DNA of 61,112 nt, counting the filler, from Globobulimina sp. (Eukaryota), in assembly GCA_003354225.1 (NCBI GenBank). It is 17 parts of 17 records of this genome, joined end to end, with 100 filler letters (N's around TTAATTAATTAA, not from the genome) between each part and the next. Parts side by side here need not be neighbours in the genome. Positions count along the whole stretch, not along the records: positions 46,819 to 50,317 come from PIVH01002658.1; 16 more parts are not named here. One strand, given 5' to 3'. The notes beneath the pieces are model-generated. The model was not told where the DNA came from, made no database searches, and was given only the letters and a program-made list of their open reading frames with translations. Every line of letters starts with the position of its first letter. The first letter of the stretch is position 1. Both the position numbers and the translations under genes were made by a program. This document shows positions 3,044 to 53,338 of this stretch, in pieces.

Positions 3044-3503
3044 AATATAATTTATTACAATATAACATAAATGGATTAATATGCCCTACAAAAATGACAC
3101 AAGAAGATAAATGCAAGAGAATGTACCAAATAATGTGCTCAAAACAAATTGATTTCCTCTTGCTCCAAGAATGGAGTGCGACCCTCAGATATAAAGTCTC
3201 TCCGAAGGATCCGAATTATATTGACAAAAACGGCAAATCCCACACTGTCCGATTCCCAATTAACTTCTTTCCTAAATATAAAGTACATTATACAGGGACT
3301 GAAACAGCGATTCTTTACAGAGAAACACTGCTAATTACCCCTCTAAATTCGCCTTCGAACTATGATAAAAATGATCGAAGAAGAAACTGCCACATTACAA
3401 GTGTGATTCTACACTGTGGCGATCAGGATATTGGGATACATTCACTATATAATTGCCCCCGTAATCCCAATATAGACCAAATGTTTGGATATCCATTAAA
3501 TGT
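3037..3503 (+). CDS. LINE ORF2 N-terminus, AP-like endonuclease (3' partial)
   Basis: EEP/APE motifs in order: LLQYNINGL, IDFLLLQEW, TAILYR, IHSLYNCP. Confidence 0.85.
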
Positions 3504-3603
3504 NNNNNNNNNNNNNNNNNNNNNNNNNNNNNNNNNNNNNNNNNNNNTTAATTAATTAANNNNNNNNNNNNNNNNNNNNNNNNNNNNNNNNNNNNNNNNN
3601 NNN
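3504..3603. other. Artificial contig linker (first of 16)
   Basis: N-run + TTAATTAATTAA (stops in all six frames) + N-run, 100 nt. The same linker starts at 7107, 10710, 14312, 17914, 21516, 25118, 28719, 32320, 35920, 39520, 43120, 46719, 50318, 53917 and 57515. Contig lengths fall steadily from 3503 to about 3498. Confidence 0.98.
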
Positions 3604-44238: not shown

Positions 44239-45321
44239 TTATTCAAAATCAACATTTTCAACAATTAAATTCTGTCGGGATTGAATATTTTTACGTCTTC
44301 TTACTTTTTGTTCATGCTCAGTTTTCTCAGTAAAAGCTTGTAAACCGCGCATAACCTCCATAGGCAATGGGAATAAAATGGTACTGTTCTTTTCCGCCGA
44401 TATCTTAACCAAAGTATGCAAATAACGCAACTGCAACGCACCGGGACTGTCACTGATTGTATCAGCCGCTCTCGCCAATTGCTCCGCAGCTTCCGCCTCA
44501 CCCTTCGATGACACCACTTTGGCCCTCCTTTCCCTCTCAGCCTCGGCCTCCGCCGCCATAGCCCTTTGCATATTTTTTGGTAAACGGACATCTTTAATTT
44601 CAACAGCTGGCACTGCCACACCCCACGAACTGGTTTCTGCCTCAATGATATCTCTCACTTTATCATTAATTTCCTCTCTCTGCGATAATAAATGCTGTAA
44701 ATCGTATGTACCAATAACAGACCGCAACGTTGTTGCGCAAAAATTATTAAATGCATAACGATAATCATCCACCTCCAATATTGCTTTAATGGGATCGATG
44801 ACTTTCATAAATGAGATTGCATCAACGGTGACGGTGACCGCATCCTCGGTCATCATTGCTGTTTATACATTATTATCATAGAAGTTTATAATATATATAT
44901 TATGATATAAGAAACCTTGTGGTGGTAAATCACAAGTAACCATTCTTAGATCAATAACTGTGATGGAATCAGTCAACGGATTAATTAAGAATATGCCAGG
45001 TCCTTTTGCACCGCCTGTGATTTTGCCCAATCTGAATATCACTGCACGTTCATAGTCACGAACCGTGCGAAATAAAAAAAACCAAAATATTGGAATTATT
45101 ACACACACGAACCATGCACAACCTAATAAAAATATCTCACAACAACTCCATGTATGAGGCTCCTCCGGATCATACATATTCACTGAGGATTGGTAATCTT
45201 GCATATTTTTTTTGGACGGCGAGCCATCCAATGCTTTGGGTGCAGAATGCGATCCATAATCTGTTGTAACTACGCCTTTAGTTGGTCTGTTTTGAATGTT
45301 CTCCATTAGTGGGTCATCCAT
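44239..45321 (-). CDS. Stomatin / band-7 (SPFH) protein, copy A
   Basis: YERAVIFRLG and AMAAEAEAERERRAK..ALQLRYL; intron 44859-44915. Confidence 0.95.
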
Positions 45322-45447
45322 TTACTACTCTTCAGGAGTTTTATTTTTTTTTATTCAAAATAACCTTCCAAAGTCTGTGAAAGTCATTTGAATTGCTCCT
45401 CCCTCGTCAATATTGATCTCACTCCAAATCAAATATCATTACAAAGT

Positions 45448-46497
45448 ATGTCGAGTCGTGAAGTAGATGCGTTTGCGAAGGAGAAGCCCACCGCATCCGG
45501 CGGCGAATTACGGGTCGACACAGGCCGTAGAAAGATGCAAGATTACCAATCCGTGCATGCGTTATACGATCCGGAAGTAGGCGTAAAATGGAGTTGCTGT
45601 GAAGTAATCATACTTTGTCTTGCTTGGTTTTTAATGATAATACCTATATTTTGGTTTTTTATGTTCCGTACAGTCCGCGATTATGAGAGAGCGTTGATTT
45701 TCAGATTAGGGAAATTAAAAGGCGGCGCTGAAGGACCCGGTGTCTTCTTACTCAATCCCTTAACCGATCACATATTTGTTATTGATTTACGGATAGAAAC
45801 TTATAATTTGCCGCCGCAAGGTATCACACATAAAATATATACACTTACTGCATGTGCAAGGATATAAATATAACGCAATTTAGATATGATGACCGAGGAT
45901 GCGGTCACCGTCACCGTTGATGCAATCTCATTTATGAAAGTCATCGATCCCATCAAAGCAATATTGGAGGTGGACGATTATCGTTATGCATTTAGAAATT
46001 TTAGCGCAACAACGTTGCGGTCTGTTATTGGTACGTATGATTTGCAGGCATTATTATCGCAGAGAGATGAAATTAATGATAAAGTGAGGGATATTATTGA
46101 GGCAGAAACCAGTTCGTGGGGTGTGGCAGTGCCAGCTGTCGAGATTAAAGATGTCCGTTTACCACAAAATATGCAAAGGGCCATGGCAGCGGAGGCCGAG
46201 GCTGAGAGGGAAAGGAGAGCCAAAGTGGTGTCATCGAAGGGTGAGGCGGAAGCTGCGGAGCAATTGGCGAGAGCGGCTGATACAATCAGTGACAGTCCCG
46301 GGGCGTTGCAGTTGCGTTATTTGCATACTTTGGTTAAGATATCGGCGGAAAAGAATAGTACCATTTTATTCCCATTGCCTATGGAGGTTATGCGTGGTTT
46401 ACAAGCTTTTACTGAGAAAACAGAGCATGAACAAAAAGTAAGAAGACGTAAAACAAAACAGGATTTAATTGATGAATCAAAAGAAGATGTTTTGTAG
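45448..46497 (+). CDS. Stomatin / band-7 (SPFH) protein, copy B
   Basis: Same motifs; intron 45821-45883 at the same position as in copy A. Confidence 0.95.
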
Positions 46498-46818: not shown

Positions 46819-49800
46819 TTTCAAATCTTATTTGGTGATAACGAATACTCGACGAGAATGTGCATAGTTCAGATTGGTTAGTTTGAGTCTCCAAATCAAC
46901 TCCAATTTCTTTAATCAGCCATTCTAAATCTTTCATAAAAAATCTCCTTTTCGCATTTCTCTCAAACGAATTACAAATGCAATCCGTAAAATGGCCAGAA
47001 TCTGACATTGCTCTCCCTTTGATTGTGCCATAAATGTCCATCACATTGGAACCAGCCGCAGCCGCAGCACCATCACCATTCTTCAAATGGGGCTTTCTGT
47101 GCAACCAATTACTGATTGAATCGGAGAAAGCATTCCTCATTTTATTGGTGGACGGAACAGTGATCAGTTCGATATAATTATAGTCTCTCTCTCCTGTCCT
47201 ATCCATATATGATATCGATTGAAAAGAGTTAATTTTATTGTTACTGTCGGAATTTCCAATATTATAATCTGCAGCACCTCGACAACAATGATGGAAAGTT
47301 ATTTTGATCAATCCTTTATTTGAGGAGAATTCCTGTTGAGTTTGCAATTCGTGCTCAATAAATTCAGTGTCTATCATTTTCATGTCTGAGCTGACAAAGC
47401 AATCACTGTCATCGCCGTGACTGATAACATGCACAATTACGGCTTTATATGTTGTGTCTTCCAGTTTCTCTGCGTGCAAATCAATAAATTGTAGCACATC
47501 TTTTTTTGTGCAGTAACACGTATCTTCATTACAAACATAAACATCATAATTATAGGCAATCCTCCACAGACTCGATAACTGTTTGACATTCTTTCTGACG
47601 CCATCCAATAATTGTCTTTTATCATCAAACTGCGAAATCCCAATTATTAAAACCAAGGTTTTATCGACAACGAAAGCATTCATATATTCATTCCTCACTT
47701 TAATATAAACGAAAATAATCAAAATGCACGGAATCAGCAATAAAAATAAAAAATAAAAATTAATGTCTTCCAATATATTGGTATAATTTTTTGGAATGAT
47801 TGTAATAAAAATACCGTCATTTCCAACCACTAAATCTCCGTTATCCACCACTGCATTTATTGTAAAGTTTTGATATTGTTCGTCGTTTGTAACTGGAAGT
47901 TTTATGGAGATAATGTCAGATAAATCAGCCACTACAATGCTCTCCAAATGCAGTTCTTCACTGGAAAACGTCATCGAAATTGGTGCTGGATAATGACGCA
48001 AGACATTGCCAAATTGATCAGTAACAAAAAAATTCAATTCCAAATATGAATCCACTTTGTATTGAGCAGCATATTCAAAGTATATATGATAGGCCGTGGT
48101 GTGGTTAATCAGTGATGGCTTAGTAACTGCGACATATTCCGCTTTGTTATCAGTATTATAACTATTGTTGCTGCCACATTTTATGTGCAGTTGAGATATA
48201 TACTCAGCTGGTTCCTGATGGTAATTTTGCAAAACATCATAGCAAAGAATGCGGCAATTGTTTGGATTATATGCAAAATATATGAATGGTTGGGATAGAA
48301 TTATGTCAATAAAGACAAATAAGCCTTCATTCATCTGTATCATTGTATAATTTTCTTCCAACTCAGTGTTGTTAACAATGAATGTGATATTATCCAACAT
48401 CACAGCAACGCCATTACCCGCTTTGATCAATGGCTTATTGCCATCAATCGCAGTCCAATAATCCATAGGACTGCATTCAGAAAATGAAAAATTAGATCCA
48501 ACAGCATTTGGTATATATTTTTGTTTTCGTAATGAGGCATAGAAACATTTATTTTTATCCTCAAATATGTTTTCCATCTCGTTCCGAAAACATGATTTAA
48601 TAATTCCTGCGTCGACTTCCATGATTGTGGATCCTCGAAAAGTATTACCACTCAAACAGACTGATCCGTGCGTATTTACATAAAACAACGATTGATTGTT
48701 GCTGATGGTATCCGTCATTGTGTTGTAGATAATGCTCATTTCAACATTTCCATCAATATTTATTGTCCCCTTCCACTTTTGCAATGGATAGGGTTTAGAT
48801 TTGGAAAAGTTGTATAAAAATCCATCGTCATTCCTATCAATTGTGTTGTTTATTAAAATGGCTGTCGAGAATGCATCAAATGCTTCGTACACATTGGGAT
48901 ATGATGGTGAAAATATTGCAATTCCGGCATTGCAGTCTGTTTTAAAATAAGAGTTCTCAATCCATGAATATTGAGAAGCAAAAACGAGCGGTGGATGGTA
49001 GAATTGGTCAATATTTCCTTCATTAAACAATAGTAAAGCTTGAAGTGCTGATATTGTGGAAACATGCTCCAATCCAACGTTTGTAATATGGCAGCCGTGC
49101 AGATAAACACTTGTTGTGTAGGATGTGGTCCATATTGCCACCGAGCTATATTCCATCCGAGTATTAATAATATAATTATAACCGGCTAAAAGTCTTAAGT
49201 CATAACTAACGATGCCGTACAAATTGCTGTCCGATATAACCAGTGTGCCCTCACCAGAGTTAATTGCAAATACATTAATATGCAGTCCATGCGGATCATA
49301 TATGCATTGATCATGGCAGTATTCACCATAATAACTCGACACATTCGTCACTTCCACATAATCATAGCCACTGTTACCTTTTTGCAAAATCATTATACTG
49401 TTCGCTCCAATCCCATGCAATTCAAAACTGTCCAAATATAAGTGACAGCCATCAACGGTAATGAAGCCGTGTCCGTCCACTGCGTCAGGAATGATGGCAT
49501 TTGGCCAGGTACTGTCATAAAACAATGTGGATGCAGTGACAGCCGTGTCTTCATCGATAGGACAGAGGGATATGTTGTTTTGAAATAATTTCCGCTTGAT
49601 TTCTTCCAACGAATCTGATGTGATATCATTATGAATGCTGATTGAATGCAAATGTATGTTGCTAAAATCATTAGAAACAGCGTTCAAAAAAAGTATTGGA
49701 AGTTTTGGAACATCGCACGAATACCGTATCCCAGCGGAAAAATTAAAAGGTAACTCAGACACTGAAAGTTTGTAATCATCAAAACATTTTGCTGTCACAT

Positions 49801-50317
49801 AGTGGAAAAGGCGGCAATGACTAATTAATTTATCTGCAATCAAATAATTGATAATCACATTTGATAGGTTGACATTGCAATTTTTGATGTTGACTAAAAA
49901 TAATAACTTATCCATCTCTTCCGACTCGGAATAGCTATTTGATAATTTGAACAGATGCGATGTTGATATATTCACATTTTCAATGTTTAGTAATCCAGAA
50001 TTTACGTTATTGAGATCGAGTACATTGCCGTTCACGTTATAAAACAAAATATTTCTGATCGAAATGTTATTTGAGCTCAGTATTCCAGCAATGTGAATTA
50101 TAGACGTTCCCTGAGTTTGTGTTTGAATGTTATGGAATTGCATACCCTCAATAACCGAATATACGTCAATGTGCTGCAGAGTTTGACCAATATCAATGAA
50201 GGTAAAGGCACCCAATAATGTCATATTTTTAATCACATTTCGTTTCATAATTAAACTGCATTGCTGCAAACCAACCAGTGTCGATTGGAAAATATAAACC
50301 GCAAAAATGGCTGTACT
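46819..50317 (-). CDS. Single-pass receptor-like protein with intracellular caspase-fold (peptidase C14) domain (partial at both ends)
   Basis: Frame open across the whole contig: Asn/Ile-rich beta-helix-like ectodomain, VTDQFGN Ig-like module, TM helix at ~47700-47765, then VLIIGISQF..IVHVISHG..TFHHCCRG. Confidence 0.85.
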
Positions 50318-50431: not shown

Positions 50432-53338
50432 TTAATTCAAATTAACAACACCTTCCACCTCCATCATTTCTTGCTCAATGCCATTAGGCTCTAACATTGA
50501 TTGTCTTGCATTTGCAATACGTGTCGTTGTCGTTGAAATACGTGTCGGTGCCATTTCAACCATTTCAATTTGTTCTAATGCTGCGTTTGATGCTATACAT
50601 AAACTGATTATATTTGTAATTTTTGGTTCATCAGATAATTGCCAACAATCTTTAAATATTTTTGATAATTTTCCCTGTCGATTAGCATCTAATAATATCT
50701 GTTTATAGATCTTGTTGTTATAAACATGAATAGTTAATTCAAATCCGTTTGTTATATACTTTGGTTTAACAATTTCAATAACACCGCCTTCCACACCCAT
50801 TAAAAATGCAATACGCTTTTGCAATTCGCATCGAATGGTTCGACATTTGCTTGCTTTCTTGGCAATACAATCACCGGTTATATTCATTGAAATAATTTCA
50901 TGTCCTTGTTATTTTTCTCATATTTTCAATTGATAATAAATAACAACTAACATTATTTCTGAACCAATTCAAAATATGAGAAAAATATTCTAACCTTCAT
51001 TCTTATTTATTTTTTGTTGTAATGTCATACTTAATAATGATACAATTATCGATATGAAAGAAAATATCATTGAGGATATAGCAATGGCATCAAACCCGGA
51101 TTCATTTGCAACATAAGCACCTTGCAGGCACAATTGAGGTAAATTCTAATTATAGAAATATATACAAAAATGTTAATAACTGTATACATCTGAAAAGTGC
51201 ATGAAAAGTGTCAGCTGTCAGACATATTAAACAGTGTCACATCATGCAATCCGATGAAGTACCATACCTCTAAAATAACCACGCTGTACATTCGTTTGGT
51301 AAAAAACTCATTCAATTCTCTAGATGTTAACCCCATATTAAATATCTCCAATCTAAATATAGAACTATTAAACAAGGCGACAGCAGAAAAGGAGCTACCT
51401 GTAAATACAGAAACGATTAATAACACTGTCGAAAATTTTGACAACCACGATCGAATATGATCCGTTTGAATCCAATGATTCTTTGCACAAAAATACAATT
51501 GAAATAACGAAATGAATGCAGGCACCACAATAAATACTATGGATAGATATAATATCACTTTATAAAAAGTATTATGCGGTGCAATTTTATTTTGTACACT
51601 CAGTAGTGTCACAAAAAAACAATCGGATAACATGTCACTTGTTTGTATTGCCATCGCGAGAATTGCTCCCACTTTGAAATAATCATTGATACGCACTTTT
51701 TTTGCATCGACCCATGCTGCCATTGACAACAGAGACAGAAACGCAATAACTCCAACAGCAGTGTATTGGTAATATGTGGTTAGAGTAAGCAATGTTTTTC
51801 TATATTTATCAGGTGGCAGTGATGAATCTGTAACGGGATGGTCCGTTGGCTCGAGAGTCGGTTCCAGAGTCGGTTCATTTGATCCAATGCAAACATCAAC
51901 CATTTCATAACAATAACACTCTGTTGTTAATGTTGGGAAATAATTACCAGTTTGGAAATAACCCATAGCGGTATCTATAATGTCATAACTATTCGAATAT
52001 TCACATTCATGATTGACATTGCAATATTTTGCACGCACTTCGACACATGTTTCATTGATATAATTTAAATCTAAGTAATTATTTGTCCATAATATGTCAA
52101 TCCACCACTGATTATCAATTAACATGTACTCATTTAAAATATACCAATCCAAATAATGAAAATCAAAACGACAACGACAGTCTGCGAGGTCATCGTTATA
52201 AGTAATCTCCATTACATAGCCAGTAATATCCGTCGGGATGGAACAAAATAACCCTGGAATATTCCCAGTACACTCATATTTAGCATTCTGTGTCCAGTTA
52301 AATGCAGGATATGTAATATTACATTCACACGGAGTGCTATTACCAATAAAATCAGGATGTTTGACCACGAATGTTGTTGTGTTGAGCGTTTGAGGGATGT
52401 TTAAATCTGTTTTAAATTGAGTTATTCCGCAGAAAGCTTCAACGTCAGGAATATAAGTTGATTCTGTGAGTGCTGGAACTGTGGCAGTTGATCCATCTGG
52501 ACATGTCCATGCATGAGTACTACCGCTACTGTTACTGTTATTACTTGACAAAACATCAGAAAATGAGTCTGGATAACAACATGAAATAATTTGCTGCTGG
52601 TTACCACCGGTTTCTGCATAAACAGGCGGATGCAATGTATATGAGGTATTATCTGCTGGATCACAACATGATAAATCTTTTAGTGATACTGTAGCCATTC
52701 CATTGGTCTGTATTAAAATATTAAAAAACGCTCATTTCTATATTTAGGATATAATCCCGATATATATTATTATGTACCGTAGGACTTTTCGTAGGTGTAT
52801 TTGGAGAAAAAGTAGGTGATGCTGTAGGTGAAAATGAAGGCGCATTTGATGGCGATTTGGATGGTGTTGTTGGTGCGGTGGTAGGTGCATTTGAAGGAGG
52901 GTGAGATGGTGTCGTAGGTGTATGTTAAGGTGCATTTGATGTATTTGTAGGGACAGTTGTAGGTGCAGCAGAGGGCGCAGTTGTAGGTGCTTGGAAACAT
53001 ATAAACTCCATTGTGTAATATGTTTGTGGCTCATTAGAAAAATGCCAATCATTGCTAATATCTGGTGGGAAAATAGCTCCACTGATAAGTCGCAATACTA
53101 ATAGATTAACATTAGCAGTTATTCGCCATCCCACAGGATCACGCGATATTATATAAGAACCATTTGATGTATCTAGCCTCCAGTGTGTCATGAGATTAAC
53201 GTAAACACCTTCATATCTCTTCATTGCAGTGGCATTATTTGTGTTTATAATTCTTATAAAGTCACACGGTGCTTCGTTGGATGATACAACTAGCACATTG
53301 AGCAAAAACATGTACAACAATACAATTTGGTGTGACAT
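50432..53338 (-). CDS. Multi-exon surface protein: signal peptide, P/T stalks, Cys-rich region, multi-TM domain; in-frame TAA at 52925-52927
   Basis: Exons at approximately 53338-52778, 52709-51267, 51147-50995 and 50905-50432; EPTLEPT repeats and several TM helices. Confidence 0.7.

Follow-up and report, generated by a model that had tools for sequence, protein, structure and literature searches.

A foraminiferal reading frame that joins a large outer region and a single membrane helix to a caspase-type protease domain

The stretch of DNA analysed here, referred to below as the window, comprises 61,112 nucleotides of the eukaryote Globobulimina sp. (GenBank assembly GCA_003354225.1). One of its contigs, PIVH01002658.1 (positions 46819-50317), carries a single reading frame whose product is probably a fragment of a type I single-pass membrane protein, with a beta-helix and a stalk outside the cell and, in the cytosol, a caspase-type protease activated by clustering. 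A preliminary description of the same DNA had interpreted this frame as a receptor-caspase, and that interpretation is supported; the large ectodomain, single transmembrane helix and C14 domain that it claimed are all present in one frame of 1166 codons. Beyond this, the architecture is found to define a large foraminiferal family in which the catalytic dyad is conserved and the S1 pocket is not caspase-like, and the copy in the window is truncated. The architecture, the fold, the conservation of the dyad, the family-wide linkage of helix and caspase domain, and the signals of topology are all computed observations.

The frame (46820-50317, identified by translation) lies on the minus strand, as do all features of this contig given below. 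It contains no stop codon and is open at both contig ends, and the contig holds no other frame. Its protein, termed P0001, is therefore cut at both ends by the contig, and an N-terminal part that includes the signal peptide is missing together with a short C-terminal tail. In the relative P0156, a protein of 1912 residues, residues 696-1829 align to residues 1-1166 of P0001 at 39.6% identity, and one contig from a public sequencing run reaches 1140 nucleotides past position 50317, that is, upstream of the frame start. The C-terminus is nearly complete; the conserved domain of relatives ends at the same motif and is followed by short variable tails. At the downstream end, run contigs continue for 134 nucleotides past the contig. 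The hydrophobic start of the frame (residues 3-16) was considered as a signal peptide and rejected because relatives align further upstream.

The C-terminal domain of P0001 is matched by the Pfam family Peptidase_C14 (PF00656) over residues 888-1156, with 38.3 bits against a cut-off of 21.4 and with profile positions 3-225 of 233 covered. Pfam, alignments and a structural model delimit a large-subunit-like (p20-like) half at residues 888-1022 (47252-47656). It is followed by a variable, predicted-disordered inter-subunit linker at residues 1023-1091 (47045-47251), where the predicted local distance difference test (pLDDT) score falls below 55, and by a small-subunit-like (p10-like) half at residues 1092-1166 (46820-47044), recognized from the model and alignments. 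The linker measures 69 residues, close to the 65 or so of the preliminary description, and the small-subunit-like region that had been placed after it is present and runs to the contig end. An AlphaFold2 model of residues 876-1166, built on an alignment of 33 family members, has a mean pLDDT of 84.7 and a predicted template modelling (pTM) score of 0.79, with a confident core and a low-confidence linker.

Structural comparison of this model points to caspases. In Foldseek, every row shown (ranks 1-50) is a caspase or a complex of one, with caspase-8, -3, -7, -9, -6 and -11 and CED-3 represented and a best E of 6.3e-12. With VIA-align and a reference set of 48,161 PDB representative chains, caspase-3, -8 and -9 score Z 26.8, 26.5 and 26.3 with 216-219 residues aligned; the caspase-3 entry 4jj7_A, at Z 26.8, aligns over 218 residues with a root-mean-square deviation of 3.6. 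Lower scores are obtained for MALT1 (22.7, 197 residues), CED-3 (22.5), Dronc (21.2) and the protease-like domain of c-FLIP (20.8), followed by metacaspases (17.5-18.9) and by legumain and GPI8 (16-17). The C-terminal domain is thus of caspase fold in the model, and the likeness to caspases rather than metacaspases that had been read from its motifs is borne out by these scores and by the 14 distinct sequences, all of them caspases, that a family profile retrieves from PDB sequences at E<=10.

The best of these profile matches is caspase-2 (E 0.003), and in the alignment the family SHG falls on the SHG of caspase-2 and the family C-R-G on the caspase active-site pentapeptide. The catalytic residues are thereby assigned to His967 (codon 47417-47419) and Cys1012 (codon 47282-47284), confirming the positions first proposed for the His of ISHG (47417-47419) and the Cys of HCCRG (near 47282). 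The dyad is in register and conserved rather than misplaced. Identity to caspases in the structural alignments is 10-21%, and a word-based search with profile A1 returned 17 proteins, all from EukProt, and no animal caspase or NCBI-sourced protein. By its fold and its motifs the modelled domain is classed as caspase-type, yet, with identity as low as this, as very distant.

Twelve residues separate the protease from a single transmembrane helix at residues 852-874 (47696-47764; Kyte-Doolittle); the juxtamembrane stretch after the helix is basic, and the caspase domain opens with its first strand at residue 887. A C14 fold within about 15 residues of the helix had been described, and the measured gap agrees. 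The best 19-residue Kyte-Doolittle mean within the helix is 2.91, against 1.6 for the next best segment elsewhere in P0001. To score the same junction in relatives, a hydrophobic 19-mer with a Kyte-Doolittle mean of at least 1.8 and no more than 45 residues upstream of the domain was sought in 153 BLAST-matched family proteins, of which 122 had a domain start and at least 30 upstream residues; the other 31 rows were left out, 26 because they had no domain start and 5 because they had too little upstream sequence. The helix lies directly upstream of the caspase domain in 118 of the 122 usable relatives, usually with a basic Y-C-R-K-Q-Y-like stretch after it. The four misses are two weaker helices (1.36 and 1.57) and the second domains of two tandem proteins (P0020 and P0081).

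Sequence signals favour a cytosolic position for the C14 domain rather than one outside the cell. Signal peptides are present at the start of the full-length relatives P0156, P0039, P0007, P0006, P0010 and P0013, and 57 of 93 members with long outer regions have a hydrophobic N-terminal segment. In the 15 residues beside the helix, Lys and Arg together average 2.9 on the C-terminal side and 1.8 on the N-terminal side (119 members); the C-terminal side is richer in 77 members, poorer in 24 and equal in 18. Across the family, N-x-S/T sites occur at a density of 2.15 per 100 residues on the N-terminal side of the helix and 1.13 on the C-terminal side. Signal peptides, charge bias and glycosylation-site bias together point to an orientation with the N-terminus out and the protease in the cytosol.

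Conservation was counted in an alignment of 96 complete family domains. Both catalytic residues are almost always kept (His967 in 94, Cys1012 in 93), as are the flanking Gly968 (87) and Gly1014 (93). Residue 904 (codon 47606-47608, in the p20-like half), which we take to be the position of the first caspase S1 Arg, is Leu in 93 of the 96, as the preliminary description had tentatively read in this copy; that mapping is partly our assumption. Arg1102 (codon 47012-47014, in the p10-like half), presumably the second S1 Arg from the spacing of the motif, is kept in 88 and argues against a metacaspase-type acidic S1 pocket. The residue before the catalytic Cys, Gln in the caspase signature, is His in 93 (His1010, codon 47288-47290, in the p20-like half). 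With these S1 positions changed, the protease may differ from caspases in what it cuts. The linker of relatives ends, immediately ahead of the first small-subunit strand, in the motif [D/E]-[S/A]-N, with Asp in 53, Glu in 18 and Asn in 93 of the 96 domains; from its sequence, this motif looks like an autoprocessing site after an acidic residue. A further residue of the p20-like half, His963 (codon 47429-47431), precedes the catalytic His by four positions and does not vary among the 96 domains; the matching position of caspases is hydrophobic, and the extra His may serve as a metal site, in the pocket or in the sensing of pH.

The outer region of P0001 consists of two parts. Residues 1 to about 670 (48308-50317) form a right-handed parallel beta-helix in an AlphaFold2 model of residues 1-850 (pLDDT 75.0, pTM 0.76), in line with the beta-helix-like ectodomain first described. 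VIA-align matches covering approximately residues 1-670 include the PfbA adhesin (Z 21.5), NosD (21.1) and, at Z 19-20, PL6 lyases, phage tailspikes, pertactin and polygalacturonase. Foldseek with the 850-residue model gave no match at E<=0.001, so the beta-helix assignment rests on VIA-align. The ESM Atlas yielded leads only for residues 1-850 (0.87) and no usable match for residues 685-850, Pfam SufBD_N reached 18.5 bits on the beta-helix region, which is under its cut-off, and a word-based search with the outer domain found only two proteins. By its modelled fold, the beta-helix appears to be the kind of module found in adhesins and in glycan-binding or glycan-cleaving proteins.

Between the beta-helix and the membrane lies a Cys-containing, all-beta stalk (approximately residues 685-845; 47783-48265), defined by strands in the same model. 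It is the best-conserved outer part in the subfamily, with C688, C692, C714, H739, D767 and F769 invariant in alignment A2. The stalk is possibly an Ig-like sandwich: of the Ig-like module proposed earlier, the all-beta, Cys-containing segment is seen, and its Ig nature depends on weak Foldseek rows to NCAM and filamin (E 0.015-0.02). The claim that the ectodomain is rich in N-glycosylation sites holds in part. Of the N-x-S/T sites in P0001, 18 precede the helix and 1 follows it. The enrichment ahead of the helix is modest: the corresponding average in shuffled sequences is 12.3 +/- 3.1, and a count of at least 18 arises in 97 of 2000 shuffles.

The receptor-caspase of this contig belongs to a large family. 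An exhaustive phmmer search with the 291-residue domain against 1.84 billion representatives returned 168 representative clusters at E<=0.001, 144 at E<=1e-10 and 111 at E<=1e-30. Twenty-six relatives were looked up; 16 come from Bolivina argentea and 8 from Nonionella stella transcriptomes (EukProt), and 2 are Logan or ENA records. No further copy is found in the other 16 contigs of the window. Precomputed Pfam domains in relatives include C-type lectin, jacalin and PT repeats, and a Pfam scan of 36 of the 75 members of at least 900 residues detected C14 in 26, Lectin_C in 4, Kelch families in up to 2 and LDLa in 2. Single-linkage clustering by similarity places the 117 outer regions of 150 residues or more in 16 groups, the largest of which is mosaic; the beta-helix region of the window copy is common to about 10 members. 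How often a membrane helix accompanies C14 and how diverse the ectodomains are had been proposed as things to count, and the 118 helices in 122 relatives and these 16 groups are the result. The family is thus one in which a helix-plus-caspase cassette is joined to interchangeable outer domains, namely beta-helix, C-type lectin, Kelch-like propeller, LDLa, jacalin and Pro/Thr-rich stalks.

Some members depart from this plan. P0020 and P0081 lack a membrane helix and are soluble, with caspase-like domains in tandem; the first domain of P0020 has Val for the catalytic Cys, and P0081 has Leu for the catalytic His. These two may act as regulators in the manner of c-FLIP, or may represent built-in pseudo-dimers within the receptor family. 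P0076 and P0090 carry their caspase domain close to the N-terminus, preceded by a short outer part and a helix and followed by long extensions that contain further hydrophobic helices with LRR and Notch LNR repeats in P0076 and a C-terminal SAM domain in P0090. These may be multi-pass or adaptor-bearing variants, or mis-assembled transcripts.

The soundness of the contig was checked by aligning contigs from public sequencing runs on 46819-50317. Run X1, possibly the source sample, covers the contig near-identically and overruns both ends. Run X2, from a separate study and under a different organism code, contributes one 2472-nucleotide contig (record 8) over 46954-49405 with 24 differences (approximately 99% identity), a single piece that extends from the small-subunit half through the helix and into 1.6 kb of the outer domain. 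Runs X6 and X7, from a third study and guessed to be RNA though possibly DNA, contain a relative at 94-95% identity in pieces over 46819-47732 and 47550-48396, the second of which (X7 record 28) bridges the helix. The indels listed relative to run contigs all preserve the frame. They comprise +6, +3 and +9 in the linker, where those of the related organism lie at 47071, 47185 and 47196, and, in the outer domain, -8 plus -1 nine bases apart, and -9. A 4092-nucleotide contig in X2, along with others in X1, X6 and X7, matches just two short conserved stretches of the caspase domain (47023-47554), which are spaced 420 letters apart in the X2 contig versus 495 in the window copy. Contigs of this kind probably represent a paralogous receptor-caspase gene in the same organisms.

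Pairing of the protease was addressed by homodimer modelling. The domain scored 0.32 (best control 0.00), just at a mark that is reached by 21 of 30 proteins solved as one-chain pairs and by 0 of 23 solved as single chains. Contact agreement between runs was at least 39% and partner pLDDT at least 68, and the predicted interface is symmetric, consisting of domain residues 278-286 (280 against 280) and the helix at 257-268, which correspond to the last strand (1153-1161) and a helix (1132-1143) of P0001. Since caspase dimers are among the solved structures, the pass may reflect likeness rather than independent evidence. The soluble tandem relatives, one with a dead first domain, fit a family in which pairing matters.

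In animals, adaptors bring initiator caspase monomers together, and pairing through the last strand activates them. With the protease held 12 residues from the helix, beneath a large and variable outer domain, ligand-induced clustering is the economical reading of the foraminiferal architecture. For the ligand, activation through dimerisation, autoprocessing, substrates and outcome, we infer the following sequence of events. The protease would be kept at the membrane as an inactive monomer until a multivalent ligand, probably a glycan surface on prey, a microbe or another cell, gathered two or more receptors; the lectin-type and beta-helix outer domains, the latter modelled, suggest glycan surfaces as the ligand. 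The cytosolic domains would then pair through the last beta-strand in the manner of initiator caspases and turn active, and many members would probably cut their own linker after an acidic residue. Active proteases could go on to cut cytosolic substrates near the membrane, and the cell might then die, mount a defence response or locally remodel its pseudopodial network. For foraminifera as a group, we tentatively propose that receptor-caspases, each a single chain, form a large and diversifying repertoire of more than 150 sequence clusters, whose lectin-type and beta-helix outer domains recognize foreign or prey surfaces and whose cytosolic proteases are switched on directly by clustering, a picture that is possible but still short of probable.

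The same architecture could serve without any signal passing inward. P0001 might be a membrane-anchored adhesion or feeding protein whose beta-helix sticks to, or degrades, glycans of prey or substrate, while a caspase that is constitutive or regulated from inside trims cytoskeletal or vesicle proteins at the pseudopod membrane. Foraminifera rely on adhesive, dynamic pseudopodial networks, the outer domain has its nearest structural neighbours in adhesins and in polysaccharide lyases or hydrolases (PfbA, PL6 lyases, tailspikes), and Pfam finds no signalling domain in P0001 besides the protease. However, the joining of one cassette to many unrelated outer domains is more readily understood if these are interchangeable sensors than if they share one adhesive role. 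The protease also sits on a short, conserved tether from the helix, and a symmetric dimer interface is predicted, albeit with the reservations given above; on balance the adhesion or feeding explanation is rather unlikely. A non-catalytic role is improbable: the caspase-like domain would then be a scaffold or pseudo-enzyme like c-FLIP, recruiting proteins when the receptor is engaged. The altered S1 pocket, the good structure match to the c-FLIP protease-like domain (Z 20.8) and the few relatives that have lost a dyad residue (the first domain of P0020, Cys to Val; P0081, His to Leu) speak for it, but a domain without catalysis would hardly be expected to keep His, Cys, Arg1102 and the Gly residues beside the dyad in nearly all members, and the window copy itself has both dyad residues.

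That the fusion is an artefact, whether of a chimeric contig, of read-through between two genes or of bacterial contamination, is by now a very remote prospect. It draws on the contig being short (3.5 kb), with both ends cut and no usable neighbours, and on the exact copy being known from a DNA contig and not from RNA. Set against this, the frame is unbroken over 3498 nucleotides, X2 record 8 and X7 record 28, from other studies, bridge the helix region, and whole-length transcriptome relatives carry the fusion in the same domain order, with the same junction in 118 of 122. Bridging run contigs together with full-length, transcript-derived relatives rule out a chimera. A bacterial origin of the contig was likewise rejected, since every named relative is foraminiferal (24 named of 26 looked up) and a neighbouring contig of the same assembly carries an apparently intron-split SPFH gene, described below. 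The artefact explanation is largely refuted already.

Several observations weigh against the reading of P0001 as a clustering-activated receptor-caspase. Sequence likeness to solved caspases is weak, with a best profile E of 0.003 and no match at E<=1 when PDB sequences are searched with the single sequence. The strict caspase S1 signature of two Arg and the pentapeptide Gln is not kept, as two of its three positions are changed, with Leu at position 904 and His1010 in place of Gln. The linker of the window copy ends in G-S-N, with Gly at a putative processing site that is acidic (Asp or Glu) in 71 of 96 relatives. Its N-terminus is cut off, and the signal peptide is seen in relatives instead. 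These relatives come from transcriptomes of field-collected cells, in which some foreign transcripts are possible. Finally, the homodimer score lies just at the mark and may be a memory of solved caspase dimers.

The remainder of the window gives no genomic context for this gene. It consists of 17 contigs of 3498-3503 nucleotides placed end to end in order of size rather than a continuous stretch of genome, and they are separated by 16 linkers of the form N50/TTAATTAATTAA/N50 at 3548, 7151 and so on to 57559; the contig at 46819-50317 is a whole assembly contig with such a linker on either side. Because the contigs are unrelated, neighbourhood arguments across a linker are unsound, and nothing beyond 46819-50317 is genomic context. 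The contig at 43220-46718 contains two divergent genes of the stomatin/SPFH (Band_7) type within 44863-46497, with N-terminal regions that are alike. The plus-strand gene lies in two frames (45388-45867 and 45886-46497) that break at Pfam profile position 52/53, and the split looks like a short intron, which fits a eukaryotic genome. On another contig, a minus-strand frame of 495 codons (51211-52698) has an N-terminal half rich in Cys and in N-x-S/T sites, followed by several hydrophobic helices, and has no Pfam match; it may encode another lineage-specific surface protein.

Caspases are usually viewed as soluble, animal-specific proteases that are brought to receptors by adaptors. In receptor-caspases, a caspase-type domain is wired straight to a cell-surface module, and the arrangement is repeated across a very large protist family. 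If these proteins are active and dependent on clustering, they would allow the induced-proximity model of caspase activation to be examined in a minimal system that occurs in nature and would open a first way into how the giant single cells of foraminifera perceive microbes, prey or each other, and receptor-coupled caspase signalling would have arisen, or been kept, outside animals. A complete pathway of death or defence, from surface to protease, would then be contained in one polypeptide that evolved outside animals, and the coupling of caspase-type proteases to extracellular sensing would not be an animal invention. An S1 pocket with one Arg, a His and a Leu could, in addition, reveal a new specificity class in the caspase branch of C14.

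Among known systems, animal initiator caspases (caspase-8, -9 and -2, CED-3 and Dronc) resemble P0001 in fold, in the register of SHG and C-R-G and in the order of large subunit, linker and small subunit, as well as in the predicted pairing through the last strand and in the logic that leads from surface receptor to protease. Animal caspases are soluble and reach receptors through death-fold adaptors. In P0001, by contrast, receptor and protease form one chain, the prodomain is replaced by more than 850 residues of outer region and a transmembrane helix, and Pfam detects no CARD, DED or death domain in it. The S1 pockets also differ, as that of the receptor-caspases keeps one of two Arg and has His in place of Gln. 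Death receptors of the TNF-receptor superfamily are likewise distinct; by Pfam, P0001 lacks TNFR repeats and a death domain, and its outer fold is a beta-helix. In the paracaspase MALT1, which acts downstream of surface receptors, induced proximity switches on a caspase-like domain, and the structure match of MALT1 to the foraminiferal domain is good but below those of caspases. MALT1 is a soluble protein that also contains death and Ig domains; its S1 pocket is acidic and its specificity is for Arg.

Caspase-type domains have been reported from a foraminiferan before. In the parts of the literature covered here, caspase-like proteins of Reticulomyxa filosa group with animal caspases and not with metacaspases at 92-95% bootstrap (Klim et al. 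2018, PMC5982838), are used as a caspase outgroup (PMC10959488) and are mentioned again (PMC10565124). They likewise represent a foraminiferal C14 domain of caspase rather than metacaspase type. In the main text of Klim et al., to which the additional files are external, the word "receptor" does not occur and the sole use of "transmembrane" refers to mitochondrial potential. The closest architectural parallels are bacterial. As presented in the relevant passages, the cyanobacterial orthocaspase MaOC6 is predicted to span the membrane and to have an outer receptor domain (Klemencic and Funk 2017, PMC5756287), and the caspase component of EACC1-caspase two-gene systems sometimes has membrane helices and an extracellular binding-protein domain (Kaur et al. 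2020, PMC7159879); such proteins are proposed there as sensors in conflict or cell-death systems (PMC7159879, PMC5756287). On these accounts, they share with P0001 a cytoplasmic caspase-superfamily protease joined through membrane helices to an outer ligand-binding domain. Unlike P0001, however, they place the caspase at the N-terminus and the outer domain at the C-terminus, and their domains are described as prokaryotic and orthocaspase-type, with a partner EACC1 gene. None of them appears among the 150 matches listed from the exhaustive phmmer search.

Because membrane-spanning bacterial caspases with outer sensors are already described, the novelty of the present architecture is confined to eukaryotes and to caspase-type domains; full-text literature searches found no description of a membrane-spanning receptor-caspase in a eukaryote. 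The nearest functional analogues are man-made. In engineered FKBP-caspase-9 or -8 "suicide switches," a caspase is fused to a dimerising module, and proximity suffices for activation. These switches are artificial, and the receptor-caspase family would be their natural counterpart, with an extracellular input.

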